This document shows positions 10,617-41,344 of a stretch of DNA of 64,000 nt, piece by piece. Numbering within the stretch: position 1 is the stretch's first letter; each line of letters begins with the position of its first letter. Both the position numbers and the translations under genes were made by a program. A model generated the notes under the pieces. It was not told where the DNA came from and did not search any database. It saw nothing but the letters and a program-made list of their open reading frames with translations. Location: positions 3,584,001 to 3,648,000 of the forward strand of contig OZ242320.1 of assembly GCA_965208125.1 (NCBI GenBank), read 5' to 3'. The DNA is from Candidatus Latescibacterota bacterium (GTDB lineage: Bacteria > Latescibacterota > UBA2968).

Positions 10617-10755
10617 GCAGGGGCGGGTTGAACAGCTATCGCAGTTGTACGTCGCTCAAAACCCGCCCGTACATCAGCGTCCGACAAGAGAAATACCGGG
10701 ATGGTTTTGTGTCCCGGTATTTTTTGTAGGGGTGGGTTTTAAACCCGCCCGTATA
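10617..10755. repeat. REP-like palindromes
   Basis: GCAGGGGCGGGTT...AAAACCCGCCCGTAC and GTAGGGGTGGGTTTTAAACCCGCCCGTAT between convergent genes. Confidence 0.65.
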
Positions 10756-21751: not shown

Positions 21752-23422
21752 CTAATCTGCCCACTCTTGTACCGCCCACTTGAGCAATTTTTCCTCCCGT
21801 TTTTGAACTTCTGCCTTCCCCCATTTGCCAGAACACTGCTTTGCAACATCCTGGGCAATCAAAAGTCCCGTTTTAGTATATTCACTGGCTTTATCCTTTG
21901 GACGTTTGTTTCCCAACTGGGAGTTTAGTTTAGGGGGTAGCATCATCAGATTACCTAGCCTATGGACATAGGAATATTCAGTGCTTTTGGGTTGGATATG
22001 TTCAATGGAGTCAGTAGCGCTAGATTCCCAAATACGATTCCATTGTTCGTTATCGAATTTCTGTCCGGCTTCCTTCGCCAAGTGTTCTTCATACCGAAAA
22101 AAAATGTAGCGCAATTCTTCTGTTCGGTCTGGGTACAAGTCTGTCTCTCGAAGTTCCTCAACAGCCTTATCGCATGGATACCTTTTCCCAATCTTCGCTA
22201 GGTTATCCATAATTCCATCCCTGGACAGTTTTTCTTTTATAATTCGCCGTGCAAGCCTCACATAGTCTCCCACTGCTGTCCTGGAATCCTTTGCATACAT
22301 GCCATAAATGCGAAACGTCACGTTCTCCCAACGACGAAGTATCTGCGCCTTTTCACTTTTTGTCAGGTCATAACGAAGATTCACTGCGACAGCAGCCAAC
22401 CTTGCCTGTACAATTTTCGTAACTGCATTTCTCCGGCGGTCTACTACTAACGTATCTAATGCCTCAGTCACGGACTTTATCCATTTCGTAGTCTCAATTA
22501 CACTAATCGGGTTCTGGGACTGTTCGAATAGAAGTTGGACAGCATCTTCCTCACTCATCGGACGGCTCTGAGGATGGTCACTGCGTAAAGTGGCAGCGAA
22601 GCGAAGCGATTCAGTACTCAGCCCCAAGCGCAATCCTATGATCCTGTATATTTCAGCCCAAAGACCATGGACTTCTTCAATTAAAGCTTGACTTTTATCG
22701 GTCTTTGCTTCAAATACAACGGCCATTAACATACTCTTGAGTCGATCAAACCAAGAAACTTCTAAACCTCTGCTGTTAAGTACTTCGAAAACGGTGTATA
22801 CGAGTCCTTCATCGCCAATTGCATAAAAAATGAAGAACAGTTGGTTTTTGAGATGTCCATAGAGTTTTGTGAGAGAATCAACCTTGGCTTGCCAGTCTAT
22901 CACAAAATCCTCACATTCTTTCATAGCCAAGAGAAGTTGGTAGTCAGCTAATGTATCTGCCGAATTAGGGTCCGGAGAAGTTCCGTTTCTAATGTAGTCA
23001 GCAAAGTATCCCTTTCTATCATGATTGGTTTGTAGAAGCAAAAGTGACGCTTCGTCCGGCTTTACCAGAATTTCGTCAATCTCATGGCCAATTCTTTTTT
23101 CAATCGTATCGGAACGGTTTAGCGCCTTTGCAATAGCCTTAAAAAGCAATACCAATGTTGTGATTCTCTGCTGTCCATCTACAATATCAACCTCTTGATA
23201 TTCGTCGGTAATAATGTGTACCTTTTCTTGACGTAGCCCCACGATGGTAGCCATGAAATGATCTTTAGCTGTTTCTGCCAAATAGCTTTTTTTTATATCA
23301 TCGAACAAGTTTTCTCGCTGTTTTGACTGCCAACTGTAGGACCTCTGATACGGCGGTATTTTGAATAGGCGTTTGTTGAGTAGTTCTGCAAGGCTAAAAA
23401 GCTTAGGTTCCATCATGTTCAT
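21752..23422 (-). CDS. GmrSD-type restriction endonuclease (DUF262 + DUF1524 HNH)
   Basis: IPPYQRSYSW, DGQQR, FEVLNSRG (DUF262); SIEHIQP...RLGNL.ML...N (DUF1524). Confidence 0.88.
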   Translation of the reverse strand: MNMMEPKLFSLAELLNKRLFKIPPYQRSYSWQSKQRENLFDDIKKSYLAETAKDHFMATIVGLRQEKVHIITDEYQEVDIVDGQQRITTLVLLFKAIAKALNRSDTIEKRIGHEIDEILVKPDEASLLLLQTNHDRKGYFADYIRNGTSPDPNSADTLADYQLLLAMKECEDFVIDWQAKVDSLTKLYGHLKNQLFFIFYAIGDEGLVYTVFEVLNSRGLEVSWFDRLKSMLMAVVFEAKTDKSQALIEEVHGLWAEIYRIIGLRLGLSTESLRFAATLRSDHPQSRPMSEEDAVQLLFEQSQNPISVIETTKWIKSVTEALDTLVVDRRRNAVTKIVQARLAAVAVNLRYDLTKSEKAQILRRWENVTFRIYGMYAKDSRTAVGDYVRLARRIIKEKLSRDGIMDNLAKIGKRYPCDKAVEELRETDLYPDRTEELRYIFFRYEEHLAKEAGQKFDNEQWNRIWESSATDSIEHIQPKSTEYSYVHRLGNLMMLPPKLNSQLGNKRPKDKASEYTKTGLLIAQDVAKQCSGKWGKAEVQKREEKLLKWAVQEWAD

Positions 23423-27533: not shown

Positions 27534-28376
27534 ATGAATTTCAAACCCACTTCTGACCATACGTGGAACGGACTAATTTGCGGTGTTGTATTATATATGC
27601 TCTTTGTCGTAGCTCCCGTAATTATAATCCTGAGATATTTTTTGAATATCGATTATGGTTCCCTGATGATTGGCTTGATTGTGTTTCTTATCTACTTTGT
27701 AATAAAAAGAAAAATGTATTGGGCTCAGGGGGATAGAGCGATAGTGTTGACGTTGAGTTTCTTTAGGTCCAATGCGAAAAATAAAAATAATATAAAGGAG
27801 TTCAATTACGACAAGGATCAGGATATTCTTAAAGTAGATTTAGATAAAGATGGTATTTTTCATATGCTTATGTTTTATTTTGCATTTGGTATCGCCATTG
27901 CTGTTCAATTTTTATTTTTTGGGGAGATCGAATTGCGTTTTTCGGGCATTGATATATGGAAGTTATTGGGATGTATTTGCCTCGTTATAATTCTTCACGA
28001 AGCGCTCCATGGTTTTGCCGCGCTACTGTGGGGGAGGATCCCTGGGCGTTCAATACATTTCGGAGTCAACTGGCGACAGTTCATGTTTTATTGTCATTGC
28101 GATAAACCCATGAAGGTGAATACTTGGCGAATTTTTGTCCTTTTACCTCTCCTTATCACCACACCTATTGCGGGGCTTATTTGGTGGTTAGATCCATCTA
28201 TTTGGTCGCTATTGTTCTTCAGCATAACAGTAGCTTTTTGTTCTAGAGATGTCTTGTTATTTTTCCAGACCCGCCAGGTTGAAAATGACAAATGGATTCA
28301 AGCCCACGAATCAGAACCTGGTTTCTATATCCTGCCAGACGCTATCGCCACATCCTCTGAAGAACACCACAGATAA
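27534..28376 (+). CDS. DUF3267-like putative membrane metalloprotease
   Basis: Multiple TM segments, LHEALHG, FG......YCH, late conserved D. Confidence 0.7.
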   Translation: MNFKPTSDHTWNGLICGVVLYMLFVVAPVIIILRYFLNIDYGSLMIGLIVFLIYFVIKRKMYWAQGDRAIVLTLSFFRSNAKNKNNIKEFNYDKDQDILKVDLDKDGIFHMLMFYFAFGIAIAVQFLFFGEIELRFSGIDIWKLLGCICLVIILHEALHGFAALLWGRIPGRSIHFGVNWRQFMFYCHCDKPMKVNTWRIFVLLPLLITTPIAGLIWWLDPSIWSLLFFSITVAFCSRDVLLFFQTRQVENDKWIQAHESEPGFYILPDAIATSSEEHHR

Positions 28377-28427: not shown

Positions 28428-29285
28428 ATGACATATCCAAATTTGAAGCAGTCTATTTGGTTGCTGATATTATTGATTCTCATTACAATTGGCTTGACTG
28501 TATTGATAGTCATTATAGGTGCCATTATTGACGAGCCTTTGTATGAGTATGATTACTATTCTGGGCTTTTGCCGCTGGCAAGTTTTATTCTCATTTTGTA
28601 CTATGTTTCGCATCGGACAGGTCGAACATGGGCAGATATGTTGCCTCTTGCGATTAGAAATATAGACTATGACTGGCGCATGTGGCTTTCCGTTGGGTTC
28701 TCTATCCTTGGACTGGGGATTGTTCTGACTGAATTGTCCAATGCGGTGATATCTGTGTTGCCCATGCCCGAAGTGTTTCAGGACATCTTTCATCAATCCT
28801 TCGGAAAAGAAACATCTTATCTGTCAGCCTTATTTGTCGCAGTTGTAATAGCACCTCTTACTGAAGAGATCGTTTTTAGAGGCATTATCTTGAAAGGTTT
28901 ATTGGCACATTGTACTCAAAATCGGGCGGTTATTTGGTCGGCGATTCTGTTTGGTCTATTTCATCTGAATCCGTGGCAATTTCCAGTGGCTTTTATATTG
29001 GGACTTATCTTTGCCTATTGGGTTATTCAAACGGGATCTTTGTGGCCTGCAATTTTGGGGCACGCACTGAACAATTTGATATCTGTGACATCGCTGCATT
29101 TCGATGTACCAGGGTTTCCAGTTTCAGAAGATTTTAATGTTGTGGTTCACAATCCGTGGTGGTTGAATGTGTGCGGACCGATATTGGCTGTTCTTGGGTT
29201 GTGGTGGTTTTATCAGGTGGCGAAGCGCAACAAAACAGATCAGCTTGAGGCGAGAGTTGAACCCGAAGGAACTCAGGAGATGTGA
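28428..29285 (+). CDS. CPBP (Abi/CAAX) intramembrane protease
   Basis: APLTEEIVFRG, FGLFH, H.LNN motifs. Confidence 0.9.
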   Translation: MTYPNLKQSIWLLILLILITIGLTVLIVIIGAIIDEPLYEYDYYSGLLPLASFILILYYVSHRTGRTWADMLPLAIRNIDYDWRMWLSVGFSILGLGIVLTELSNAVISVLPMPEVFQDIFHQSFGKETSYLSALFVAVVIAPLTEEIVFRGIILKGLLAHCTQNRAVIWSAILFGLFHLNPWQFPVAFILGLIFAYWVIQTGSLWPAILGHALNNLISVTSLHFDVPGFPVSEDFNVVVHNPWWLNVCGPILAVLGLWWFYQVAKRNKTDQLEARVEPEGTQEM

Positions 29286-29469
29286 TAATTGAAAACAAAT
29301 ATAGCCTATTATGAGACCGTATGAAATTGTGATTTTGCGTCCGATAGAGTTGTTTCTTTTCACTTTTTTGAATTGCAATGGAACAAAATGTACCCCTTTT
29401 CTTAAATAGCGACTCCCCTGATTAGCAAGCGTGATCTGCTAACATCAATTATATATCCTTGTTTTATCG

Positions 29470-29499
29470 TGCCTTAGAATATTCTAAGGCATTTTTTTT
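29470..29499. terminator. Perfect 22-bp palindrome plus T-tract (terminator or operator)
   Basis: TGCCTTAGAATATTCTAAGGCA followed by T8. Confidence 0.55.
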
Positions 29500-29515
29500 G
29501 TGCTTTTTCAAAAAT

Positions 29516-29531
29516 GGGCACGGTATTTGCA
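29516..29531 (+). promoter_or_regulatory. Sigma54 (-24/-12) promoter of the glycosyltransferase/peptide operon
   Basis: GGGCACGGTATTTGCA, i.e. GG-N10-GC with GGCACG and TTGCA, 75 bp before ATG 29606. Confidence 0.72.
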
Positions 29532-29605
29532 GAATATGTCGTGTGCAAATCGCGTGAACGGGATTGATGCGGACGGAATGTCCGCGATGTTGGAGGGTTC
29601 AAGAG

Positions 29606-32149
29606 ATGAAGATTTTACATATTCTGGATGTTTCGCTGCCACACCGACAAAGCGGCTACAGTTTGCGAAGCCAATATATTATCAACACGCAGAAAGCACT
29701 TGGCTTTGATCCTGTGGTGCTCACGCGATGGGGGAGGTCTGAACAACTCGTGGATGGTGTCGAATATATCGATGACGTGCCTTATTTGAGAAATACTTCT
29801 GAAGCATACGCGATACGTGTGGGTGAACGTCTGGGCAAGTTTCAATTGCGGGATACGCCACAAATTTATCACGCGGGGCAGGAGCAACACTTTCGCAAGC
29901 GCGTTGCGCGGGCTGTTGAGGCAGAAAAACCCGATGTGTTGCACGCTGCTTCGCCAGGCAGAAACGCGCAGTTTGCGATTGATGTAGGGCATTATTACGG
30001 CTTGCCCGTAGTGTATGAGGTGCGGGGTTTGTGGCACGATAGCGGTGTGGCGCAAGGTATGCTGGTTCCCGATTCAGAAGCGTATCGCCAGCAACACGCA
30101 GAACATGTCAATGCGATGCGACAAGCTGATGCTGTGGTGACGCTGTCCGAGGTGTTGAAAATAGAGTGCATACGCGAAGGGGTTGACGAAGACAAAATAG
30201 GCGTGGTGCCCAATGGTGTGGCAATAGAGCAATATGCACCCAAAACTCGGTTGAGCGAACTTGCCAAGCGCCTGGGGATTGAATCGGGAGATGTGGTGTT
30301 GGGCTATATCGGTCTCGTGCGGTCGCTGGAGGGATTGCGGTTGTTGTTGCAGGCGTGTGAGGTTCTTCGCGGGCGGTATGCCAAGCTCAAAGTGTTGATT
30401 GTGGGTGGTGGACGAGATTTACCGGCGTTGCAGCGCGAAGCGCGTGAACGCGGTCTCTCGGATATGGTGATTTTTACGGGTGAAATACCGCACGACCAGA
30501 TTGCTGCGTATTACGCGATGTTAGATGTTTTTGTGATTCCTCGCACACGTAGCCGCGTTACCGAACTGGTCACGCCGATGAAGCCCTATGAGGCGATGGC
30601 GATGGAAAAAGCCGTTGTTGTTAGTGATGTGGCTGCACTTACAGAGGTGGTTACAGATGGTGAAACCGGGCGGGTTTTTGTGGCAGATAATGTCGAGAGT
30701 CTTACTCAGACATGCGCCGAGCTCATTGAGAATCCCGCACTGCGGATGCACTTGGGAAAAAAGGGTAGCGAATGGGTGCGGTCAGAGCGCACATGGACGC
30801 GGATTGTGGAAGGCTATCGCGGGATATATGAGACCACTGTAGAATCATTACGGGATGTGTCTAATCCACATTTTGGGACTCAAATTCGACACAAGCGCAT
30901 TGCGTTTTATAGCCAGCATCTGATTGGCGTAGGACACCATTTTCGCAATCGACAGATTGTCAATGAACTGGTCAAAACAGGTGATATGTTTTTTATCGAT
31001 GGTGGCCGTCCCATTCCCGAGGCTGATCTCGATGAACGAGTGAAGCGTATTCCCCTGCCGCCCCTTCGCACGGGACCACAGGGCATTGAGCCTGTTGATA
31101 CAGGGCGAGATTTGCAGGCTGTGATGCGCGAGCGTCTGGTCAGACTTGCCGAAGCGATGGAACAGATTCGTCCCGATGTGTTGTGCATTGAGTTTTTCCC
31201 TTTTTCCAGATGGTCGCTCAAGAGCGAAATCCTCCATACTATTGTCAGGCTCAATCAGGTCAATCCCGGTGCGAAGGTGTTGTGTTCGCTGCGCGATGTT
31301 CCAACGCGAGCAAAGAGCGATGCGTTGCAACCGACTGTCGCGCTTGCTCAGAGACGCGATGGAGATGCGATGCGGTTTTATTCGGTGCCTTTTGGCGGGA
31401 TACATCACGAGTATTTGTCTTTTAATCGGCGGTATTACGAGGAGGTTGTGCCTGTGTTGAATCTGTATTTCGATGCGGTCTTAGTGCATGGTGATTCCAA
31501 ACTATCGCGGTTGGAAGATCACTTTCCCTGGGCTGCTGATATCGGTATTCCCATCATTTATACGGGGTTTGTTTCTGAGAAACTCAAAGACGTATCTCGG
31601 CCTGATGGTGCGCCGAATCGGTATGTCCTGGTCAGCGCTGGCGGTGGGAGTGGAGGGCTTGCGCTTGTTGCACCGTGTATTGAAGCGTGGAAACAATTGG
31701 ACCAGAACAATGCGCTTGATGGGCGCAAGATGGTGATTTTTGCAGGTGCGTTTATCAATGAAACGCATTTTGAGGCTTTGCGAGAATTGTGCGGTGATGG
31801 TCCGTTTCGCATTGAGCGTTTTACGTCCAATTTTTTGGCGTGGATGAAATACGCGGATTTGTCGATTAGTCGTGCGGGCTATAATACGTGTATGAATGTG
31901 CTTGAGGCACAAGTGCCATCGATTCTGGTGCCGAGCATTGCGATGGATGATCAGGTATTTCGCGCACAGCAGTTGATGGGGTTGGGTATTGCACAGGTGA
32001 TACATCCCGATCAAATAGGTGCGGGAAAGATGGCAAAAGCTATTGCCGAAATGCTCGAACGTTCTGTGTCCGAACACGATCTATCCATAGATGGTGCCGA
32101 GCAAACGCGAAAGTTCATAGAGCAGCAGTTAGCAAAACAGAAAAAATGA
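29606..32149 (+). CDS. Two-domain glycosyltransferase (GT4 + COG4671/GT28-C-like)
   Basis: N-half MKILHILD.SLP..SGY..R, VYEVRG.W, ELVTP.KP.EAMA; C-half FYSQHL.G.GH, VSAGGG, SRAGYNT.. Confidence 0.88.
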   Translation: MKILHILDVSLPHRQSGYSLRSQYIINTQKALGFDPVVLTRWGRSEQLVDGVEYIDDVPYLRNTSEAYAIRVGERLGKFQLRDTPQIYHAGQEQHFRKRVARAVEAEKPDVLHAASPGRNAQFAIDVGHYYGLPVVYEVRGLWHDSGVAQGMLVPDSEAYRQQHAEHVNAMRQADAVVTLSEVLKIECIREGVDEDKIGVVPNGVAIEQYAPKTRLSELAKRLGIESGDVVLGYIGLVRSLEGLRLLLQACEVLRGRYAKLKVLIVGGGRDLPALQREARERGLSDMVIFTGEIPHDQIAAYYAMLDVFVIPRTRSRVTELVTPMKPYEAMAMEKAVVVSDVAALTEVVTDGETGRVFVADNVESLTQTCAELIENPALRMHLGKKGSEWVRSERTWTRIVEGYRGIYETTVESLRDVSNPHFGTQIRHKRIAFYSQHLIGVGHHFRNRQIVNELVKTGDMFFIDGGRPIPEADLDERVKRIPLPPLRTGPQGIEPVDTGRDLQAVMRERLVRLAEAMEQIRPDVLCIEFFPFSRWSLKSEILHTIVRLNQVNPGAKVLCSLRDVPTRAKSDALQPTVALAQRRDGDAMRFYSVPFGGIHHEYLSFNRRYYEEVVPVLNLYFDAVLVHGDSKLSRLEDHFPWAADIGIPIIYTGFVSEKLKDVSRPDGAPNRYVLVSAGGGSGGLALVAPCIEAWKQLDQNNALDGRKMVIFAGAFINETHFEALRELCGDGPFRIERFTSNFLAWMKYADLSISRAGYNTCMNVLEAQVPSILVPSIAMDDQVFRAQQLMGLGIAQVIHPDQIGAGKMAKAIAEMLERSVSEHDLSIDGAEQTRKFIEQQLAKQKK

Positions 32150-32157
32150 GGTAAAAA

Positions 32158-33561
32158 ATGAAAATTTACGTGCCACACCCATATTGCGACCGCGAGAAAG
32201 TGATAGCGTCAAATAGTGGGGCGTCTCTATCAGGTTTTAACCATGTGCTGGCGTTATCGAAGTATTGCGAGGTGTATATGCCAGCGTCTGAAGCGGTGGA
32301 TTATGGTCCGAATTTGCACGGTATTCGACTCGCATTTGAGACGATTGATTCGTCTCGCCAGTGGTTTGCGCGGCAGGGATTTGACGGGGTGCTGATGTTT
32401 GAACCCAAAGCAGATGACCTGGCATTTTTTCGCCATGTGTGTCCCGCACCCATTGTGATTCGGCTGTCGTGTTCTTTTGGGCGCAATCGCGATTTTGTCG
32501 ATAAAGTGCTTCAATGTTATTCGCTGTTGCGGCCTTATGATGCCTTGTCGCCCAAGTCGGCGTATGTCGCTGACGAAGTGGGCAAGTTGGTGTTTGACAA
32601 GTCGTATTTGCGTCCGATTACCAATGGGGTAGATGCCGAGGTGTTCAAACCGATGGATAAGTTGCAAGCGCGCAAAGAGGTCGTGGATAAGACAGGTGAT
32701 CAACGCTTTTTGGAGATGCCTGTGGTGGGTTTTTGCGGGCGGTTTGAACCGGGCAAGGGCGCGTATTCATTTTTGCGAATGGCCGATCTGAATCCCAATG
32801 TGTTGTTTACAGTGATTGGCAAGCAGTTCGCTCCCGTGACGCATCCTCCCAATGTGATCTTTTTGGGCGCGCAACCCTATACGGATATGCCGCTGTATTA
32901 CAATATGCTGGATGTGTTGTGCGCGTTGTCGGTGTATTCGTATGAGTCGTGTCCCTCAACTGTGATAGAGGGCATGGCGTGTGGTCTTCCGGTTGTGGCG
33001 ACAAATTTTGCGGGTGCGCCAGAGTTGTTGGGCAGTTGTGGGCAGTTGATAGAGATTGAGCGATTTGAAGATGAGCCATTGAATGTGACGGGTTATATCG
33101 ATCCTGAGGTGATTTCAGATGCTGTGCGCGGTTTGTTGAATAGCAAAACGGAGCGGGAGAAATTGGGTGAGTGTGCTCGCAAACGCGCACTCGAATTTTC
33201 CTGGGATTGTATGGCACAGCAGCACCTGGCATTGTTTGAAGATCTGCTGACCAAACGCGATACACCCGCGTGTCCGATTCCACTAACCGTGAGTTTTACA
33301 CAGGGTTGTGATATATCTGGTGTGCCGAAGAGTGTGTCTAAGGGGTTTAACTATTTGGGCAGCAGGCAAGGCCCATTGCCGCGTATCCCGTTTTTGGGGC
33401 AGGATATGTCCCTTATTGAGGGTCTGGGCCTTCACTTGATGCAACATTTACATCCAAACGAAGTCGAAGCCGTCCTGTTGGGATTATGTGAAACGCGCGC
33501 TACAGCCTACAAAACGCTTCGCAAAATCCGACGCTTCAGCGATATGCTCACTGCTCCCTGA
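32158..33561 (+). CDS. GT4 glycosyltransferase with ~100-aa C-terminal extension
   Basis: NGVD...F.P, GRFEPGKG, E-x7-E motif ESCPSTVIEGMACGLPVV, FSW; extra C-terminal domain. Confidence 0.85.
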   Translation: MKIYVPHPYCDREKVIASNSGASLSGFNHVLALSKYCEVYMPASEAVDYGPNLHGIRLAFETIDSSRQWFARQGFDGVLMFEPKADDLAFFRHVCPAPIVIRLSCSFGRNRDFVDKVLQCYSLLRPYDALSPKSAYVADEVGKLVFDKSYLRPITNGVDAEVFKPMDKLQARKEVVDKTGDQRFLEMPVVGFCGRFEPGKGAYSFLRMADLNPNVLFTVIGKQFAPVTHPPNVIFLGAQPYTDMPLYYNMLDVLCALSVYSYESCPSTVIEGMACGLPVVATNFAGAPELLGSCGQLIEIERFEDEPLNVTGYIDPEVISDAVRGLLNSKTEREKLGECARKRALEFSWDCMAQQHLALFEDLLTKRDTPACPIPLTVSFTQGCDISGVPKSVSKGFNYLGSRQGPLPRIPFLGQDMSLIEGLGLHLMQHLHPNEVEAVLLGLCETRATAYKTLRKIRRFSDMLTAP

Positions 33562-33614
33562 TGGATAGAAGGATACAGCTTGCGCTGAGGTAGTGAAGAA
33601 AGGAGGTGATAGAG

Positions 33615-33812
33615 ATGAAGAGACGAGTTATATCAAATCCCGAGCAATCGGTCGCTGATGTGACCCCTCTACCGATTAAAACGAGTGATCTGGACGCGTA
33701 TCAAATTGCTCATATATCTGGTGGATCTATATTGGATGTCATCGGTGATTATATCAGTGAGGAATTGGGTATAGACGTACCAGATTTAGATGTTCATCCA
33801 TGGTCCTGGTAA
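33615..33812 (+). CDS. Precursor peptide 1 (double-glycine leader)
   Basis: SD AGGAGG; leader ...LDAYQIAHISGG, then core SILDVIGDYISEELGIDVPDLDVHPWSW. Confidence 0.85.
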   Translation: MKRRVISNPEQSVADVTPLPIKTSDLDAYQIAHISGGSILDVIGDYISEELGIDVPDLDVHPWSW

Positions 33813-33966
33813 GTTTTTGGTAGAGTGAATATTGGGCTTCCTGATAGTAATCGCGCTACACCTGCAAAAATCGACACTTCAGCGACACGCTCACGGCTTC
33901 TTGCGTCCCCAACAAGGGATGCTATTTGCACTGCGCTGAGGTGGTAAAGAAAGGAGGTGAGGAAGA

Positions 33967-34182
33967 ATGGCGAGACGAATCATATCAAATCCTGAGCAAT
34001 CGGCTTCCTGTGTGACCGATCTACCGCTTGAAACGACGGATCTGAACGTGCATAAATTTTCTCAGGTCTCTGGTGGATGTTACCCGACCCCGGAGGAAGA
34101 GTTCAGTGAAGAATATGACCCAACACTGGAAGGTATTTTGGATGATGTTGACCCCTTTTACCCCTGGTCCTGGCCAATGTAA
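33967..34182 (+). CDS. Precursor peptide 2 (double-glycine leader)
   Basis: SD AGGAGG; leader ...LNVHKFSQVSGG, then core CYPTPEEEFSEEYDPTLEGILDDVDPFYPWSWPM. Confidence 0.85.
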   Translation: MARRIISNPEQSASCVTDLPLETTDLNVHKFSQVSGGCYPTPEEEFSEEYDPTLEGILDDVDPFYPWSWPM

Positions 34183-34328
34183 TTCAGAACCCGGTAAGTA
34201 TTTGGCTCAGTGGAACCTGTTGGTCATTTGTTGTAAATCTCTAATTTTTATTTTTCAAGTACTAAAAAACCAGCTTTATTCTACAAAGTACTTGATAAAT
34301 TTTACAATTCATTTATTCGGAGGATATC

Positions 34329-34637
34329 ATGTCTGCTGTCGCATTAAATAATCGCGTGACTTCAGATTCAGACGCTATTTTTGCGTCTTGCACATCACTG
34401 CCCATCCAGCAAACAACGCTCAATTGTGAAAAAATGGCAGGTATTGATGGTTTATGCCTGTGGGGGACAGTTTTTGGTGAAGTGCACGAGCTTATTTCTG
34501 AATGGGAAGATCAGTTGGAAGATGTTAATACTGTAGCTTCGCTATATTATTATGGCGGTGTTGTTGTTTTGTCTGCCGACCCTCCTGAGCCTGGGGTTGA
34601 GTATCCCCTAATAATACCTAATAAGAAGCTGTTTTGA
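34329..34637 (+). CDS. Precursor peptide 3 (GL-type leader variant)
   Basis: SD GGAGG; leader aligns without gaps to peptides 1/2 and ends LNCEKMAGIDGL, then C. Confidence 0.8.
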   Translation: MSAVALNNRVTSDSDAIFASCTSLPIQQTTLNCEKMAGIDGLCLWGTVFGEVHELISEWEDQLEDVNTVASLYYYGGVVVLSADPPEPGVEYPLIIPNKKLF

Positions 34638-34747
34638 AATTATTGGGACCTATCCCTTTACTCCTATCCGCGTCAATTTAAGGGGTAAATCACTGTCACT
34701 CCTGCACATGTGGTATCACAATTCCTTTCATTTACCCGGAGGCTATC

Positions 34748-35011
34748 ATGTCCCCTATTGCATCAAATAATCGCTTGACTACGTATTCAGATGCCGCTTT
34801 CGCCTCTTGCACGGCACTATCTATCCATCAAACAACGCTCGACATTGAAGAAATGGCAGGTATTAATGGATTGTGTCATTCTGAGCAAGAAGAAGAAGAG
34901 AATTCTGCAATCCCGACACCACCCAGTCAAGCGGTCATTATGTATTACATATTGAAAGCTAAGAGGCGAATGGAAACCCCCGTGATTTACTGTTCCTATT
35001 CTATTTGGTAA
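34748..35011 (+). CDS. Precursor peptide 4 (GL-type leader variant)
   Basis: SD GGAGG; leader paralogous to peptide 3 and ends LDIEEMAGINGL, then C. Confidence 0.8.
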   Translation: MSPIASNNRLTTYSDAAFASCTALSIHQTTLDIEEMAGINGLCHSEQEEEENSAIPTPPSQAVIMYYILKAKRRMETPVIYCSYSIW

Positions 35012-35032
35012 GGTGCATCAACCCGTTATTTC

Positions 35033-35064
35033 TGTGGCTACGCCGTGGGCATGGCGTAGCCACA
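35033..35064. promoter_or_regulatory. GC-rich stem-loop between precursor genes and exporter
   Basis: TGTGGCTACGCC-N8-GGCGTAGCCACA, perfect 12-bp stem, no T-tract. Confidence 0.65.
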
Positions 35065-35083
35065 CCACATAATGGATTGAAAA

Positions 35084-38000
35084 ATGAATCTTTCCCACTT
35101 TTTCTTAAAAAACTCGGTGTGGACGCAGTCTGTTCATTTTCCCTTTGGAGGTGTTGTTTTTCAACAGGGGCAAGCGGGTGAGGCGTTTTATATTGTGGAG
35201 TCTGGACGGTTGCGGGTGATTAAGCAGGATGCGAATGGTACTTCGACAACTGTGGGATATTTGTATGCGGGCGATCATTTTGGTGAAGGGGCACTGTTGA
35301 CCAGGCAGGGGCATCGGGCAACGGTGCGAGCGGTTGAGGATGCGGAGGTGTTGCAGGTGCCCAAGGATGAGTTTTTTAAGGCTGTGAGAAAAAGTTCTGA
35401 TGTACGAGCCTACCTCGAAGAGCAGGTTGCCTGTATTGCATATCGGGATTTTACGCGATTTTTGAAAGGAGATGTTCCGGGCGAGGCGATGCGGGTGTTG
35501 TTCGCGCGGTTGAAGCGCGAGGCAGCTGAGGAGGGTGTGACCGTTGTTGAGCGAGGTCAGTTGGGTCAGCGATTTTATTTGCTTGGTAGCGGTCAGTTGG
35601 AGGCTGTGTTAGAAAATGGTGATACGGTGATTCTACGCCCGGGTGATTATTTTGGCGATGGTAGAGATGATGAAACGATCATTCGCAGTCGGCGTGATGG
35701 TGTACTCTTTTATATAGATAAAAGCAATTTTAATAAGCTAAAAGCTATGATGCCGGGATTCGAGGAGGCGTTGGATAAAGGCTGCATATTGCGTGGAGAA
35801 GAGGGATCAAGAGGGGAATTGCGACCTGTGCTTGAGCCGCCTGTTGTGCGATCTGTTACCCAAAAAGATACAGAGCCTAATACAGCATCCAATGTGGTTA
35901 ATATCAGAATAGACGGTGAAAAACCACAAGTACCTACATTGTTGCGTTTTCCGTTTTTGAAGCAACACGATCAATCAGATTGCGGCGCGGCGTGTTTAGG
36001 CATGATCTGTAAGTATTACAAGATGCCTATTGGATTAAACAGGTTGCGCGATATGTCCAATGTGTCGCGGTATGGCACGTCAATGGCGGCATTGGCCGAG
36101 GCTGCGGAGACACTGGGCTTTGTCACGCGCGGTGTGCGAACGGGTTATGAAGCTCTGATGCGAACAGAATTGCCAGCTATTCTCCACTGGGAAGGCAATC
36201 ATTTTGTGGTCCTGTATCAGATGAATAAAAAGGAAGTGAACATAGCGGATCCAGGTGTGGGTATTCGCAAGCTGTCGCGGGCAGAGTTTGAAAAGGGTTG
36301 GACAAACATGGCGCTTTTGTTGGAATACACGGATCAGGTGGCAGAGAATGAACCCTCTCGGTCTTCTTTTAAGCGGTTTTTTCCATTAATCAGACCCTAT
36401 ACAAGCATTTTGATTGAGGTATTGTTGGCGTCTTTGGTACTCAGTTTGTTTGGTCTGGCATCACCCATTTTTATGCAGACGATTGTCGATCAGGTCTTAG
36501 TGCATCACGATGAGGATTTATTGAATTTGATGCTGGTGGGTATGGTCGTTGTCGCATTGTTCCAGATGGGTACATCGACGTTGCGTGTCTATTTAATCGG
36601 GTATGTGAGTGCGCGATTGAGCATTGCGATGTTGTCGCGTTTTTATCGGCATTTATTGGCACTATCCATGCGGTTTTTTGCCCTCAGGCGCACGGGCGAT
36701 TTGACCACGCGGTTTCGGGAGAATGCAACGATTCAGCGTTTGTTGACGGATACGACGGTTTCTGCGGTTCTGGATTTTATCATGCTTTTTGTCTATCTGG
36801 GTCTGATGTTTTATTACAATGCGGAACTGACGCTGGTCATGTTGATTTTTGTGCCGCTATCTGTGGGTCTCACGCTGATTTACACACCCATTTTGAAGTC
36901 TTTTAGCCAGCGTGCTTTTCTGGCGCGTGCCGAACAATCCTCGGTTTTAATTGATGCGCTGCACGGTATTGATGTGGTTAAAGCCGAGGCGGTGGAGCGC
37001 GCGACACGGTGGCATTGGGAAGGTAAGTTCACAAGGGAAATTCAGATTGGCTTTCAACGGTTAAAAATGCAGATGTTGTTTGGGGGGATGGGAAGGGTAA
37101 TTAATTTGCTGAGCAGTACGGTGATTTTGTGGTATGGTGCCTCATTAGTGATTGCGGGGGACCTGTCGGTTGGGCAGTTGATGGCGTTTAATGCGCTGAT
37201 TGGCAATGTGATGGGTCCCATTATGGGCTTGATCGGAATATGGCCTCAGGTGCAAGAAGCGCGTATTGCCCTGGATCGGCTGAATGATGTGTATGACACG
37301 CAGATGGAAGATGCGCGGCAGCAAGGTCAGGGTTTGATCTTAAAGCATTTGGTAGGGCGCGTGGTTTTTGATGCGGTGTTTTTTAGATATGGTGTTGGTT
37401 CTGATGAACCTTATGTGTTGAATAATATAGACCTGACGCTTGAGCCAGGTCAAAAGGTTGCAGTTGTGGGACGCAGTGGTGCGGGTAAGACGACGTTGGT
37501 CAAGCTGTTGCCCCGTTTGTTTGATCCGTCAGAAGGTCGGGTGATGATAGATGGTATGGATGTGCGAGATCTGGATCCCCATTGGTTACGGCGACAGGTG
37601 GGTATGGTGATGCAGGAGCCGTTTTTGTTTTCTGGCACGATTGCAGAAAATATCGCTATAGGTCAGTCAGATGCGGATATGGATCGCATTTTGGAAGTGG
37701 CGAAACTATCGTGTGTCCACGATTTCGTAAGTGATATGCCTTTGGGGTATGAGACAAAGGTGGGTGAGCAGGGCGTGGGGCTGTCTGGCGGACAGCGACA
37801 GCGGATTGCCATTGCCCGAGCACTTTACCATGATCCGAAAATTTTGATTTTTGACGAGGCGACCAATGCGTTGGATACAGATTCAGAACAGGCGATACAG
37901 GCGAATTTAGATCTGTTTTTGGATGATCGCACGGCGTTGATTATCGCGCATCGGTTGAGTACGGTGCGCGATGCGGATGCGATTGTGGTCTTAGATAAGG

Positions 38001-38092
38001 GTCATATTGTAGAGATGGGCACGCACGATGAGTTGATGGTGCAACAGGGTTTGTATTATCACATGTGTAGTCAACAGTTGCAGGTGGTGTGA
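35084..38092 (+). CDS. Peptidase-containing ABC transporter (cNMP-binding domains + C39 peptidase + ABC TMD/NBD)
   Basis: Two cNMP-like domains (FYIVESG...GDHFGE; FYLLGSG...GDYFG); C39 Q.....DCGAACL, HFVV, IADP; GRSGAGKTT, LSGGQRQR, DEAT, IAHRL. Confidence 0.93.
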   Translation: MNLSHFFLKNSVWTQSVHFPFGGVVFQQGQAGEAFYIVESGRLRVIKQDANGTSTTVGYLYAGDHFGEGALLTRQGHRATVRAVEDAEVLQVPKDEFFKAVRKSSDVRAYLEEQVACIAYRDFTRFLKGDVPGEAMRVLFARLKREAAEEGVTVVERGQLGQRFYLLGSGQLEAVLENGDTVILRPGDYFGDGRDDETIIRSRRDGVLFYIDKSNFNKLKAMMPGFEEALDKGCILRGEEGSRGELRPVLEPPVVRSVTQKDTEPNTASNVVNIRIDGEKPQVPTLLRFPFLKQHDQSDCGAACLGMICKYYKMPIGLNRLRDMSNVSRYGTSMAALAEAAETLGFVTRGVRTGYEALMRTELPAILHWEGNHFVVLYQMNKKEVNIADPGVGIRKLSRAEFEKGWTNMALLLEYTDQVAENEPSRSSFKRFFPLIRPYTSILIEVLLASLVLSLFGLASPIFMQTIVDQVLVHHDEDLLNLMLVGMVVVALFQMGTSTLRVYLIGYVSARLSIAMLSRFYRHLLALSMRFFALRRTGDLTTRFRENATIQRLLTDTTVSAVLDFIMLFVYLGLMFYYNAELTLVMLIFVPLSVGLTLIYTPILKSFSQRAFLARAEQSSVLIDALHGIDVVKAEAVERATRWHWEGKFTREIQIGFQRLKMQMLFGGMGRVINLLSSTVILWYGASLVIAGDLSVGQLMAFNALIGNVMGPIMGLIGIWPQVQEARIALDRLNDVYDTQMEDARQQGQGLILKHLVGRVVFDAVFFRYGVGSDEPYVLNNIDLTLEPGQKVAVVGRSGAGKTTLVKLLPRLFDPSEGRVMIDGMDVRDLDPHWLRRQVGMVMQEPFLFSGTIAENIAIGQSDADMDRILEVAKLSCVHDFVSDMPLGYETKVGEQGVGLSGGQRQRIAIARALYHDPKILIFDEATNALDTDSEQAIQANLDLFLDDRTALIIAHRLSTVRDADAIVVLDKGHIVEMGTHDELMVQQGLYYHMCSQQLQVV

Positions 38093-39475
38093 ATGGCAGA
38101 ATCGCTTTTAGAGACACCAGCAGAGACAATGTCTCCAGGTATAATCCAGGGACAAGATGACGCGGCAGAAGAGGTGCATGCGTTTATGGGATCCTTGCGG
38201 CCCTTTTGGGGTCGTGCATTGCTCTATATTGTCCTGCTATTTGTAATTATTGCCATTATCTGGGCATGGTGGGGCAAGGTGGATGTGGTGGCATCAGCGC
38301 CTTTTCGGCTGGTGCCCCTCGGACAGGTGAAGACGATGCAGGCGCGGCGAGGTGGTGAGATTGAGTTGATTGGTGTGAAAGAGGGAGATCAAGTCGAGAA
38401 AGGGCAGGTATTGTTCAAGCTCAAATCGTGGGAGACCTGGGGAGAGTTGCGGGAATGGGAACAGGCAAAGATGGCTTTTCAAAAGGCAGAGTATGATCTC
38501 AAGACGGTGTTGTCTCAAAGGGCGAGGTTAAATCGAGAGACGATAGAGGCATTGGAGCAACGTCTTTCTGTTTTGCAGCAGTTTATGGAGGCACATCAGG
38601 ATGCGTTGGAAGATTATCAAAGCGATGTGGCCGGTGTTGAGGGATCGAAAAGCAAAGTATCTGACGTGGGGTTGCAAGCGCAGATCGGGTTTCGTCAGGC
38701 TGAAATTGATCATTTGAAGGGGGAGTTTTTGCAGCAAAAGACGCTGTTTGAGCGCGAGTTGATCAGCCGGGCGGATATGAATCGCGCGCGCGTGCAGTAT
38801 TTAAGTGCTCTGTCTGCGCTTCCCTCGCGTATGTCGGAGATATACAAGAATGAAATGGCTGTACAGGATCTCAAGCGTCAAATCACAGAGGCGCGCATTG
38901 CACATGGTCGCGAGACTTCGCAGATGCAATACGCTTATGAGACTGCACAATTGCGATTGGAACAGGCGCGCAAACGCATTGATCGGACCCTCGAAGCCGA
39001 GTCGGATTTGATTCTGGCACCTGAGTCGGGCGTTGTAACACAGGTGATAGTGAATGCGATTGGACAGGTGATCAACAAGGGGCAGGCTCTCATTGCACTG
39101 GCACCTGCTTCAGCACCGATGGTTGCAGAGGTGAGGGTTTTAAATAAAGATGTGGGCTTGCTCAAACTCGGGCAATTGGTCAAGCTGAAATACGATGCGT
39201 ATGCCTTTCAGGATTTTGGTATCAAACGCGGGTGGCTTACATCCATCTCGCCCGATGCGGTGATCGATGAACGTATTGGACCGATATTTAAGTGCGTTGT
39301 TGAATTGGAAGAAAATACCATGCGCGTGAAAGGATATGACAAACCTCTGATGTTTGGTATGAAGGGCACGGCGGAGATGATGACAGATCGGCAATCGGTT
39401 TTGCTGATATTACTTTCTCCTTTGCGACAGCTTTACGAGTCGGCGAGGTACGATGTTGAGGAGGGTGCGTTGTGA
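38093..39475 (+). CDS. HlyD family membrane fusion protein
   Basis: N-terminal TM, VKEGD.V.KGQ.L, long coiled coil, AP.SG, DA..FQ.FG, GM.G.A. Confidence 0.9.
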   Translation: MAESLLETPAETMSPGIIQGQDDAAEEVHAFMGSLRPFWGRALLYIVLLFVIIAIIWAWWGKVDVVASAPFRLVPLGQVKTMQARRGGEIELIGVKEGDQVEKGQVLFKLKSWETWGELREWEQAKMAFQKAEYDLKTVLSQRARLNRETIEALEQRLSVLQQFMEAHQDALEDYQSDVAGVEGSKSKVSDVGLQAQIGFRQAEIDHLKGEFLQQKTLFERELISRADMNRARVQYLSALSALPSRMSEIYKNEMAVQDLKRQITEARIAHGRETSQMQYAYETAQLRLEQARKRIDRTLEAESDLILAPESGVVTQVIVNAIGQVINKGQALIALAPASAPMVAEVRVLNKDVGLLKLGQLVKLKYDAYAFQDFGIKRGWLTSISPDAVIDERIGPIFKCVVELEENTMRVKGYDKPLMFGMKGTAEMMTDRQSVLLILLSPLRQLYESARYDVEEGAL

Positions 39476-40251
39476 TGGTGGAGGATGCTATGTTGATTCA
39501 GGTCAATAGTATCGCAGTATCATTGCACCATATTGTGCGACAATTAGGAGTTGCCGATAATCTACGTTTTTTTGATGAATTTGCGCGTAGAGAATTGATC
39601 CGGCAACTCGCGCTACGTGAGGGTGTTTGTGCAGCGCGTGAAGATATTCAGCGTAAGGTGAATGAATGGCGGTATCAACATCGCCTCGAACGGGTGGAAG
39701 ATACAGAGGCTTATCTTGCAAAGCGGGGTATTACGCTTCAGGATGTGGCAGAAGATGCCGAGGTGAGGCGGCTGGAGTTTTTGCTGTCTGAGAAGATTGC
39801 CGAGGGACAGGTCGAACCCTATTTTGCACAACACACATTGGAATTTGATGAGGCGGAGATTTGCTGGATTTTTCACACGGATGAGGGTGTGATCGACGAG
39901 GTTGATTTGCAGATACGAGAAGATGGTGCAGATTTTTACGCGATGGCGCGTCGGTTTTCTCAAGATGCACACACGCGGCCAGGTAGTGGCTTTTTGGGTC
40001 GTGTGAGGCGCAAGCAGTTGCCAAAGGGGATTGCTGCACGCGTGTTTGCCGCTTCACCGGGTGAAATTTTGGGTCCAGAAAAAGTATCGAAAGGCTTTGC
40101 GCTGTATTTGTTGCAGGAACGCTATCCGGCAATGCTGGACGAGCGGATTAAAAAAGAAATTCGCAAGCACCTGTTTAATCAGTGGTTGCAACGAGAGATG
40201 CAGCGGGCAGATATACGATATCCGATTTGGCAGGCGAAAGTCTCTAAATAG
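39472..40251 (+). CDS. Parvulin/PpiC-type peptidylprolyl isomerase-like protein
   Basis: F..MAR.FS.D......G.LG, VFAA.PGE..GP; same layout as PPIases of C39-ABC/HlyD loci. Confidence 0.8.
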   Translation: MMVEDAMLIQVNSIAVSLHHIVRQLGVADNLRFFDEFARRELIRQLALREGVCAAREDIQRKVNEWRYQHRLERVEDTEAYLAKRGITLQDVAEDAEVRRLEFLLSEKIAEGQVEPYFAQHTLEFDEAEICWIFHTDEGVIDEVDLQIREDGADFYAMARRFSQDAHTRPGSGFLGRVRRKQLPKGIAARVFAASPGEILGPEKVSKGFALYLLQERYPAMLDERIKKEIRKHLFNQWLQREMQRADIRYPIWQAKVSK

Positions 40252-40264
40252 AAGGAGAATATGG

Positions 40265-41344
40265 GTGAAAATTATTCTTGTTGCGGGTGCGCGGCCCAAT
40301 TTTATGAAAGTTGCCCCGCTGTGGAATAGACTGATCAAGATGCCCGATGTGTTTGATCCGATTTTGGTGCATACGGGACAACACTATGACGATTTTATGT
40401 CCGAGATTTTTTTTCGAGACTTAAATCTTCCCAGGCCACATTATGAATTAAATGTGGGGTCGGGCAGTCACGCGTACCAGACAGCGCAGATCATGATGGG
40501 ATTTGAGGATGTTTTACTTCAAGAAAGGCCGGATTGGGTTCTTGTCGTTGGCGATGTAAATTCCACTCTGGCATGTGCGATGGATGCAGCAAAATTGCAA
40601 ATCCCCGTTGGACACATAGAGGCAGGGTTGAGAAGCAGGGATAGGTCAATGCCCGAAGAGATCAATCGGCTCGTTGTGGATGCCATATCCGATCTTTTGT
40701 TTGCACCTTCGATGCAGGCGTGTGAAAATCTGAGGCGCGAAGGCATAGAAGAGAGCCGCATTCATTTTGTGGGCAATGTGATGATAGATTCCCTTGTGTT
40801 GCTATCTCCCAAAGCCGATGAATCCCGCATTCTGGATATACACGGTTTATCAGTTCAAGAGTACGTTTTTCTGACTCTCCATCGAGCCTCAAATGTCGAT
40901 TGCCCAGATACGTTGGCTGGCATTGTATCCGCGTTGCAAACCTTCAAATGTCCAATCGCCTGGCCTTTACATCCGAGAACCCGCAATCGCCTATCCCAAT
41001 TTGGTTTTTTGCAAAGGCTTGAGATGATGGACAATATCAAACTTATGGATCCGGTGGGCTATCTCGATTCTTTAAAACTTCAGAAGAATGCAAAATGTGT
41101 GATGACAGATTCTGGAGGATTGCAAGAAGAGACGACGGCTTTGGGTGTGCCGTGTTTGACGCTTAGAGAGCATACAGAACGCCCAGAGACTATAGATATT
41201 GGGACGAATACACTTGTGGGTGTTTGTCCCGAACGCATTGTTGCAGAGGCTGAATCTGTTTTGAAAGGGCACTATAAATCCGGTCGCTTGCCCGAGTTGT
41301 GGGATGGCAATACCGCAGAGCGAATTGTTGCTTTGCTTTGTTGA
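40265..41344 (+). CDS. wecB: UDP-N-acetylglucosamine 2-epimerase (non-hydrolysing)
   Basis: GARPNFMK, HTGQHYD, H.EAGLRS, PEEINR, TLHR..N, TDSGGLQEE, TERPE; GTG start after GAAGGAG. Confidence 0.92.
   Translation: MKIILVAGARPNFMKVAPLWNRLIKMPDVFDPILVHTGQHYDDFMSEIFFRDLNLPRPHYELNVGSGSHAYQTAQIMMGFEDVLLQERPDWVLVVGDVNSTLACAMDAAKLQIPVGHIEAGLRSRDRSMPEEINRLVVDAISDLLFAPSMQACENLRREGIEESRIHFVGNVMIDSLVLLSPKADESRILDIHGLSVQEYVFLTLHRASNVDCPDTLAGIVSALQTFKCPIAWPLHPRTRNRLSQFGFLQRLEMMDNIKLMDPVGYLDSLKLQKNAKCVMTDSGGLQEETTALGVPCLTLREHTERPETIDIGTNTLVGVCPERIVAEAESVLKGHYKSGRLPELWDGNTAERIVALLC

Follow-up and report, generated by a model that had tools for sequence, protein, structure and literature searches.

Peptide precursors of a lineage-restricted leader family and a linked GT4 glycosyltransferase in a Latescibacterota genome

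Four small genes, P1 to P4, lie between positions 33615 and 35011 of a 64,000-nucleotide stretch of DNA (the window; contig OZ242320.1, positions 3,584,001 to 3,648,000 of the forward strand, assembly GCA_965208125.1) from a Candidatus Latescibacterota bacterium. Judged by their sequences, they are true precursor genes, with a leader whose family is restricted to one lineage, and they are placed between the gene for a GT4 glycosyltransferase of 467 residues (GT467) and that for a peptidase-containing transporter. The favoured explanation of the whole locus, in which precursors of this leader family are exported through a C39 peptidase transporter and are glycosylated in the cytoplasm, is held with moderate confidence. 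Coordinates given without a locus name refer to the window, and the features described are on its forward strand unless stated otherwise.

The precursors and their leader family

Each of the four genes was preceded by a GGAGG-type ribosome-binding site 4-9 nucleotides before the ATG. P1 (33615-33812, 65 residues) is made up of a leader (33615-33725) and a predicted core of 28 residues (SILDV...HPWSW), which meet at ISGG/SILDV, the slash separating leader and core. In P2 (33967-34182, 71 residues) the leader (33967-34077) is followed by a core of 34 residues (CYPTPEEE...PWSWPM) at VSGG/CYPTP. The leader of P3 (34329-34637, 102 residues) occupies 34329-34454 and ends in GIDGL, with a core of 60 residues after it (IDGL/CLWGT), and that of P4 (34748-35011, 87 residues) occupies 34748-34873 and ends in GINGL, with a core of 45 residues (INGL/CHSEQ). 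The core lengths of 28, 34, 60 and 45 residues and the first core residues Ser, Cys, Cys and Cys had been listed in an initial annotation of this DNA, and the open reading frames agree with them. P1 and P2 form subfamily A and P3 and P4 subfamily B, with 51% identity within the A pair and about 30% between the pairs; the A-type cores are short and acidic, the B-type cores longer.

In a MAFFT alignment of the four leaders the single gap was due to five additional residues at the N-terminus of P3 and P4, and the other 38 columns were ungapped. Counted back from the core, position -4 was occupied by Ile, Val, Ile and Ile, position -7 by Ile, Phe, Met and Met and position -12 by Leu in all four, with Gly at -2, in agreement with the shared ungapped leader with hydrophobic residues at -4, -7 and -12 that had been noticed initially. 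The A and B leaders were also compared through separate profiles, built from the leaders of relatives only and with the window sequences left out. The A-only and B-only profiles were aligned by hhalign with a probability of 99.1% (E 1.3e-18, 36 columns), and all 45 A-type leaders scored 10.9-73.6 bits on the B-only profile, where 900 shuffled sequences reached at most 7.4. This indicates that the likeness of the two leader types is far above what chance would be expected to give. For the leader pairs the ratio of non-synonymous to synonymous differences (pN/pS) was 0.38.

Conservation was counted in 152 unique family members, that is 148 from outside the window and the four window peptides. 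Leu at -19 and Gly at -2 were present in all 152, and most members had Arg at -34 (145), Ser or Thr at -31 (148), Cys at -22 (120), Pro at -18 (125), Leu at -12 (141) and both Met at -7 and Ala at -6 (108 each); Ile or Val was found at -4 in 95. The last leader residue was Gly in 99, Leu in 33, Ala in 9, Glu in 6, Gln in 2 and Thr, Lys or Met in one each. The leader is 37-44 residues long, and its C-terminal part (L-12, M/I-7, I/V-4, G-2) fits the C39 peptidase code, of which the -4/-7/-12 positions are described in PMC6363468 as established structurally. That the leaders carry this recognition pattern had been stated from the start and was borne out, the next gene downstream encoding an ATP-binding cassette (ABC) transporter with an active-type C39 domain.

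The small residue at -1 is Gly in P1 and P2; P3 and P4 have Leu at this position (34452-34454 and 34871-34873), which homology places where the second Gly of a double-glycine site would be. The shared leader noticed initially is retained, with the qualifications that it falls into two subfamilies and that the Leu of P3 and P4 is not canonical for a double-glycine site. The one transporter of the window would need to cleave after G-G as well as after G-L. Because a C39 domain has been shown to cut after the non-canonical Gly-Lys (as described in PMC12457901), cleavage at Gly-Leu is plausible.

The distribution of the leader was examined in 61 genomes of relatives and in a phylum set of 168 genomes from 49 genera. 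A profile of the four window leaders found matches in 35 of the 61 relatives. With a profile of 78 sequences, 41 of the 168 phylum genomes were positive (22 of 30 in family f1 and 18 of 22 in family f2), representing 6 of the 49 genera; the positive genomes were confined to these two families of one order. The same 78-sequence profile, run at E <= 1e-3 against 1.84 billion representative proteins, gave 96 matches. Of these, 88 had at most 200 residues, and most of them matched in or close to their N-terminal end; the other eight, all longer, were repeat proteins. The search for small open reading frames with a leader profile, which had been suggested as a check of the initial annotation, thus yielded a family of about 150 small proteins, and for these unannotated or 'hypothetical' proteins the profile provides a mining handle. 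In the genome of the window itself (one contig of 5.75 Mb) there were only the four leader copies, at E 1e-22 to 1e-24, the next match being at E 2.2. The P1 to P4 proteins are already gene-called in public collections, where family members, if named, are just 'hypothetical protein'. No Pfam model matched any of the four at E <= 0.01, and NCBIfam at E <= 1 gave no leader family, NHLP and Nif11 included, but just two unrelated enzyme models (E 0.16 and 0.25). Some homologues are named Gemmatimonadetes in protein records and the same locus type Latescibacterota in genome records, so that the phylum labels are inconsistent.

A scan of 29300-35300 for promoters and terminators gave numbers not above those in shuffled sequences (12 against 8.2 +/- 2.4 and 6 against 6.4 +/- 2.8, respectively). 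In the RNA-library run X23, contigs were found that are 80-95% alike over the GT467 gene and over some stretches around P2 and P4; these contigs come from relatives, and RNA-library contigs do not prove transcription.

The cores behaved differently from the leaders. The DNA of the P1 and P2 leaders forms a repeat (33615-33726 and 33967-34078, 77%), as does that of the P3 and P4 leaders (34308-34456 and 34727-34875, 79%), and both repeats end at the leader end. One contig of run X23 tracked the window up to 34450 and then continued with a different core type. This suggests that cores can be exchanged as cassettes while the leader in front of them is conserved. Upstream of P2 the last 40 nucleotides of the GT467 gene were present once more as a degenerate remnant (33864..33903, 80% identical to 33521-33560), and 33932-33960 repeated at 93% the ribosome-binding region downstream of the GT467 gene (33581-33609). 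The remnant before P2 implies that the unit was duplicated in tandem. A similar partial GT467 copy was seen in locus L056 at 4648-4794.

The order of the leader types was recorded in 37 loci. It was AB in 16, B in 6, A in 4, AAB in 3, AABB in 2 (the window included), ABB in 2, AA in 2, ABAB in 1 and ABABAB in 1, and B never stood before the first A in any locus. Thus 25 of the 27 loci with at least two precursors had A then B, and the remaining two were AA. In locus L054 a unit of an A precursor, a B precursor and a gene of the CPBP family was present three times over. The A/B order together with the CPBP gene is the arrangement of peptide pairs that come with an immunity gene. The window cores contain 0, 1, 1 and 2 cysteines in P1 to P4. 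Many B-type cores of relatives (for example in L040, L054, L057, L060 and L108) have Cys-rich tails, such as CTCSCN, CKCDCACCN, CCCCCCCDD and SCCSCCCCKR, and some B cores are Gly/Ala-rich.

The Ser or Cys at +1, the first core residue, had initially been taken as the only constrained core position and the likely modification site, with conservation in homologues as the check and a random +1 residue as the finding that would refute it. In 74 unique precursors of relatives the +1 residue was Cys in 24, Gly in 15, Trp in 11, Asp in 10, Tyr in 3, Asn in 2, Thr in 2 and Ser in 1, with six singletons. Among 81 family representatives from the large protein search (one spurious match omitted) Gly (14), Asn (12), Leu (10), Trp (9), Cys (8), Thr (5) and Asp (5) led, and Ser was found in 2. 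In the combined set Cys or Ser occupied +1 in 34 of the 148 non-window members; as the two sets overlap in lineage, these counts are descriptive. With Gly, Trp, Asp, Asn and Leu all common, what was found comes close to that random residue, and the claim had to be given up. In the class with GG/CILPGED at the junction the +1 Cys was almost fixed (of the class-1 cores in enzyme-bearing genomes, 17 of 18 begin with it), in the P2 class Cys was shifted to +3 when the site was G-A (GA/DGCFPVP compared with GG/CYPTP), and in the P1 class +1 was Cys, Ser or Tyr. A Cys close to the beginning of the core is characteristic of certain core classes, and the Ser, Cys, Cys and Cys of the window are a coincidence of the core classes it carries and no family constraint.

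GT467 and the Ser-Glu motif

GT467 is encoded directly upstream of P1 (32158..33561) and matches PF00534. Its family comprised 45 protein clusters of 47-94% identity, nearly all of 466-468 residues, beyond which generic GT4 enzymes followed at E 1e-9; the E-x7-E pair (E263 and E271) was invariant in the family. An AlphaFold2 model with a mean local confidence score (pLDDT) of 90 showed a GT-B fold closest to MshA (E 1.7e-19), GlgM and BshA. To this fold a C-terminal domain is added (residues ~365-467, nucleotides 33250-33558), which consisted in the model of strands at 377-384, 390-397 and 415-417 and helices at 419-427, 433-443 and 447-465. The gene upstream of GT467 (29564..32149) encodes a double glycosyltransferase of 861 residues, with PF00534 and PF13579 in its GT4 part and PF04101 in a Glyco_tran_28_C/MurG-like part; it scored 332 bits, below the cut-off, with TIGR04063, a glycosyltransferase of the PEP-CTERM/XrtA system.

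The enzyme family was scanned in one genome per species, which gave 33 loci. In 32 of these a precursor with the leader was found directly downstream of the GT467 gene, and in 31 a gene for an enzyme of the 861-residue type upstream of it. Paralogues of GT467 at 69% and 52% identity each adjoined their own leader subtype, and a diverged GT467 stood beside a precursor even where no transporter gene was present within 4 kb (L094, L098, L100, L102). The C-terminal domain of GT467 was detected in 25 of the 61 relatives (20 of 20 genomes of genus g1, 1 of 1 of g5, 2 of 2 of g9 and 1 of 1 of g11), and all 25 had the leader. It was not found in any of the 15 genomes of the sister genus g7, which are 92-100% complete. 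This genus keeps the precursors, the transporter, the HlyD-family, rotamase and CPBP proteins and DUF3267, which implies that export does not need GT467. The obligate linkage provides good genomic evidence, but no proof, that GT467 acts on the precursors. With respect to the initial proposal of glycosylation, the linkage speaks for it, whereas a GT4 enzyme with a GT-B fold is not of the glycocin type and the best candidate site is an internal Ser-Glu. The sole enzyme locus of the 33 without an adjacent precursor or 861-residue enzyme was L078, from the genus of the window genome. Two precursor loci of the L078 genome (L043 and L044) have no adjacent GT467, and one copy of the domain has become a pseudogene in this genome; GT467 may act in trans there.

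Modelled by itself, the C-terminal domain gave a weak structure (pLDDT 68.6), and a structure search with it returned generic three-helix units (best Z 7.7). The order of three strands followed by three helices resembles that of a leader-binding element, the PqqD-like recognition element of peptides that are made by the ribosome and modified after translation; the leader binder of a lasso peptide, 5v1u_B, compared with the weak model at E = 4, which is not significant. Foldseek found nothing at E <= 1e-3, a sequence profile had 0 matches in the PDB at E <= 10, Pfam contained nothing meaningful and the ESM Atlas no usable match. Stand-alone copies of the domain were also searched for. About half of the 14 matches were on contigs of less than 5 kb and seem to be fragments cut off by a contig end; the remaining ones could be truncated or remnant copies. 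In L061 a frame of 109 codons without an ATG (10407-10733, reverse strand) contained the C-terminal domain only (62% identity), directly upstream of a precursor; no full GT467 was found in this genome, and the frame could be either a stand-alone domain or a remnant.

A hydrophobic-Ser-Glu motif, often after Asp-x, was present in all four window cores: DYISEE in P1 (S11 of the core, 33756-33758), EFSEEY in P2 (S10, 34105-34107), ELISEW in P3 (S15, 34497-34499) and CHSEQ in P4 (S3, 34880-34882). Its occurrence was compared in 74 cores from enzyme-bearing genomes and 49 cores from genus g7. The pattern [AVILMFCTY]-S-[EQ] was found in 50 of the 74 (mean of shuffled cores 9.3, maximum 19) and in none of the 49, whereas hydrophobic-Ala-Glu was found in 5 of the 74 and 33 of the 49. 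The dipeptide SE occurred in 53 cores of the enzyme-bearing group compared with 0 in g7, and AE in 13 compared with 33; when all 400 dipeptides were ranked, SE came out on top in the enzyme-bearing group and AE in g7. Alignment within core classes gave the same picture. DYISEEFGIDL (Ser in 5/5) corresponded to LVAEIFGVTL or ILRDLFGIDL in g7 (Ser in 1/15, a Ser-Asp), DR[VIA]SEG (Ser in 5/5) to DRA[RNK]DA or DRIMDG (0/6), and in a third class the g1 cores had an extra tail D-x-V-S-E-W-W-x-S-W that is missing in g7. This natural contrast between genera with Ser-Glu and Ala-Glu makes the site hypothesis directly testable. Glycosylation of P1 to P4 is suggested by the gene linkage together with this covariation.

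The Trp-rich C-terminal tails of the cores were considered as a target of GT467 as well. A Trp was present in the last six residues of 32 of 39 A-labelled cores at enzyme loci and of 0 of 8 at loci without the enzyme, a length-based count that becomes about 31 of 32 at enzyme loci, by a reading of the listed tails, when seven short-leader B cores are dropped. The tails had forms such as EWWxSW, HPWSW and PWPWPM (for example in relatives L037, L039 and L049; window 33798-33809 and 34162-34179). This candidate was rejected, since it stems from the same single genus contrast and has no mechanism behind it.

Export genes and other neighbours

Directly after the precursors a gene for a peptidase-containing ABC transporter of 1002 residues was found (35084..38092), with PF00027 (two stretches, E 9.5e-31), PF03412, PF00664 and PF00005. 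The domains run from two N-terminal stretches of the cyclic nucleotide (cNMP)-binding type through the C39 peptidase and the ABC membrane domain to the ATPase. PF03412 was matched at E 2.8e-40 over 2-130 of its 133 positions, and the motifs expected of an active C39 peptidase, QSDCGAAC and NHFVV, were both present. Residues 289-997 matched PCAT1 (4ry2, E 2.6e-133), ComA and HlyB. Between P4 and the transporter gene a perfect 14-bp hairpin was located (35033..35062; free energy -35.1 kcal/mol, z -5.7, with 0 of 200 shuffled sequences as good), and hairpins with z < -3 were found in 7 of 28 precursor-transporter spacers of relatives. The hairpin may decouple the mRNA levels of precursors and transporter.

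The transporter gene is followed by that of a HlyD-family periplasmic adaptor (38093..39475; TIGR01843, 216.5 bits with a cut-off of 208.65) and that of a PpiC-type rotamase-like protein (39472..40251; PF00639), which comes after HlyD in relatives as well and had 86 bits, below the cut-off of 180, with TIGR04500, a 'putative peptide maturation system protein'. The order precursors-ABC-HlyD-PpiC was kept in relatives. A gene for a UDP-N-acetylglucosamine 2-epimerase comes next (40247..41344, start approximate; PF02350, E 9.8e-108, from residue 107 of the open reading frame that begins at 40031). It followed the rotamase gene only in the window and in four relatives' loci (L036, L040, L041, L050) and is a variable neighbour; it could possibly supply the sugar donor.

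On the other side of the glycosyltransferase genes two membrane proteins are encoded, a DUF3267 putative zincin membrane protein (27534..28376; PF11667, E 2.8e-16) and a CPBP/CAAX (Abi-type) intramembrane protease family protein (28428..29285; PF02517, E 4.1e-23). Both genes recurred beside precursors in relatives. Proteins of the Abi/CPBP type have a role in immunity, and the CPBP protein is a candidate immunity protein; the DUF3267 protein is a possible immunity or processing partner. About 10 kb upstream, at 21752-23422 on the reverse strand, lies a gene for a GmrSD-type restriction endonuclease (PF03235, PF07510) that is unrelated to the locus.

Proposed mechanism, alternatives and known systems

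According to the favoured explanation GT467, possibly followed by the 861-residue enzyme, would glycosylate the precursors in the cytoplasm before export, its private C-terminal domain serving to recruit them; for this step the chances are judged even. The transporter would then cut the leaders after G-[G/L] and export the cores via the HlyD system, and the A and B peptides would act as a bacteriocin-like pair, for which the CPBP and DUF3267 membrane proteins would probably provide immunity. That the acceptor is the Ser of the internal hydrophobic-Ser-Glu is proposed tentatively. Equally tentative is the wider view that the locus represents a new class of ribosomal peptides from an uncultured phylum, in which a GT-B (GT4) enzyme with its own peptide-recruiting domain, guided by the long leader, would O-glycosylate the Ser of the acidic Ser-Glu motif in A and B cores that are unrelated in other respects, the 861-residue enzyme would extend the sugar and a cNMP-regulated transporter would cut at Gly-Leu and Gly-Gly and export the pair.

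Several observations weigh against this explanation. No leader-binding domain was matched significantly by the C-terminal domain, either in structure or in sequence. The N-terminal half of the leader, regarded initially as a possible docking site of the modifying enzyme, is strongly conserved, as would fit that role, but it is equally conserved in g7, which lacks GT467, and so it cannot serve GT467 alone. The correlation between the enzyme and Ser-Glu is mainly one contrast between two genera (g1 and g7) in about three core classes, which implies that relatedness inflates it. Moreover, genus g9 has GT467 and single precursors without Ser-Glu (L095, L104), a g4 genome that is 82% complete has DRISEG with no GT467 detected, and 24 of the 74 cores from enzyme-bearing genomes are without the motif, many of them having Ser-Asp, which g7 also has. 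The cores are mostly strongly acidic (the median of their net charge is -8), an uncommon feature among membrane-active bacteriocins, and for Leu at -1 no direct precedent was seen.

The peptides could instead be unmodified two-peptide bacteriocins of the class II type, or other secreted peptides, while the glycosyltransferases and the epimerase act on a polysaccharide, a glycolipid or the envelope, for instance in self-protection. We regard this as possible, though not as the better account of the locus. It agrees with the retention of precursors and export set in g7, with the resemblance of the 861-residue protein to glycosyltransferases of the PEP-CTERM/XrtA system and with the closest solved folds, those of MshA, BshA and PimA, which are small-molecule or lipid GT4 enzymes. 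It leaves unexplained that GT467 occurs beside the precursors almost without exception and only in leader-bearing genomes, that it was kept by the precursor after duplication and divergence to 52%, even at a distance from any transporter gene, that its conserved extra domain was found nowhere else and that Ser-Glu co-varies with it. The glycocin-like system envisaged in the initial annotation, in which the Ser or Cys that comes to stand at +1 after leader cleavage would be the site of O- or S-glycosylation (or another modification) and the only constrained core position, is highly improbable. The window residues, the adjacent glycosyltransferases, the rank of Cys as the commonest single +1 residue in relatives and its near fixation in the GG/CILPGED class are in its favour. 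Against these stand the low share of Cys and Ser in the family as a whole, the move of Cys to +3 in the P2 class, the precursors of the 52%, 69% and g9 enzyme clades, which start with N, K, G or M-type residues, the GT4/GT-B nature of GT467 and the number of cysteines in the window cores, which is too small for a nested-disulfide scaffold.

Cleavage and export could also proceed as proposed but deliver signalling peptides or surface or matrix proteins and not antimicrobials, which we consider rather unlikely; products of this kind have been suggested for other peptidase transporters of the Gram-negative type. The cNMP-binding transporter is like HetC, described in PMC10986499 as a binder of guanosine tetraphosphate (ppGpp) thought to export a signalling peptide, and small proteins with a GG motif enable biofilm formation in Synechococcus according to PMC4997328; the very acidic cores and the Gly/Ala-rich B cores would suit such products. 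However, loci of bacteriocins and their immunity genes are usually recognised by just such features, namely hypervariable cores in cassettes, pairs of A and B precursors and modules of precursor and CPBP gene that are repeated.

When known systems are compared, the locus appears to work like that of double-glycine peptides exported by peptidase-containing ABC transporters (PCAT1, ComA/ComC, LahT and the class II bacteriocins). Shared with these are Gly at -2, the hydrophobic residues at -4, -7 and -12 and Glu or Gln at -8, a neighbouring gene for a C39-ABC transporter in which the catalytic Cys and His motifs are present, more than one precursor per locus and immunity-like membrane proteins nearby, the -1 residue of P3 and P4 being the exception. 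The window family differs in a leader twice as long, with its most conserved residues N-terminal of the C39 helix, and at -1, where Leu in 33 of 152 and also Glu, Gln, Thr, Lys and Met occur; the window transporter differs in its two N-terminal cNMP stretches and in the accompanying rotamase-like protein. A peptidase transporter that apparently accepts Leu, Glu and others at -1 affects the prediction of mature products. With two-peptide (class IIb-like) bacteriocins the locus has in common that genes for two kinds of precursor are adjacent and are accompanied by an immunity-type gene.

A long C39-ABC transporter together with HlyD and a SurA/rotamase protein is also described for cyanobacterial bacteriocin clusters of groups I and II (PMC3140520), those of group I averaging 0.35 precursors per cluster (Wang, Fewer, Sivonen 2011; PMC3140520), and in HetC, too, the C39 and ABC parts are joined to a cNMP domain at the N-terminus (PMC10986499). 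In contrast to both, the substrates in the window adjoin the transporter, two glycosyltransferases are attached and the host is labelled Latescibacterota and not a cyanobacterium. The window thus offers a peptidase transporter with cNMP domains whose substrates are apparent from the genes next to it, unlike its characterised relative HetC, whose substrate PMC10986499 gives as still unidentified. In a literature search neither the leader family nor a peptide system linked to a GT4 enzyme was found described, the precursor lists supplementing PMC3140520 being outside its scope, and judged by titles and abstracts nothing relevant on bacteriocins in Latescibacteria came up.

Glycocins (sublancin, glycocin F, thurandacin, pallidocin, thermoglycocin) are alike in having a leader, a C39 transporter and a glycosyltransferase in the cluster. 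Their glycosyltransferases are SunS-like GT2 enzymes with a GT-A fold, whereas the window enzymes match GT4/GT1-type Pfam models and GT467 has a GT-B fold. Besides, the window cores with their 0-2 cysteines are without the nested-disulfide helix-loop-helix that PMC12457901 describes as the glycocin scaffold. The cores of the window family are acidic and belong to many unrelated classes. By enzyme family and by disulfide scaffold, the locus is not a glycocin locus.

The nearest working analogy for the proposed action of GT467 would be the priming by GtfA/GtfB of serine-rich-repeat adhesins; GtfA itself is a GT4 enzyme. In that system Ser/Thr residues are O-glycosylated in the cytoplasm by an enzyme with an added substrate-binding domain, after which further glycosyltransferases extend the sugar and a dedicated export follows, as described in PMC6291802. 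Only the generic fold is related, however. The extra domain of GT467 is C-terminal and unrelated to DUF1975, with no Pfam match, and the window substrates are short leader-bearing peptides and not large repeat proteins. If the link between enzyme and precursors is true, a glycosyltransferase family and fold and a new recruiting domain would be added to the very small set of peptide-glycosylating systems, and this in a phylum represented here by metagenome-assembled genomes only.

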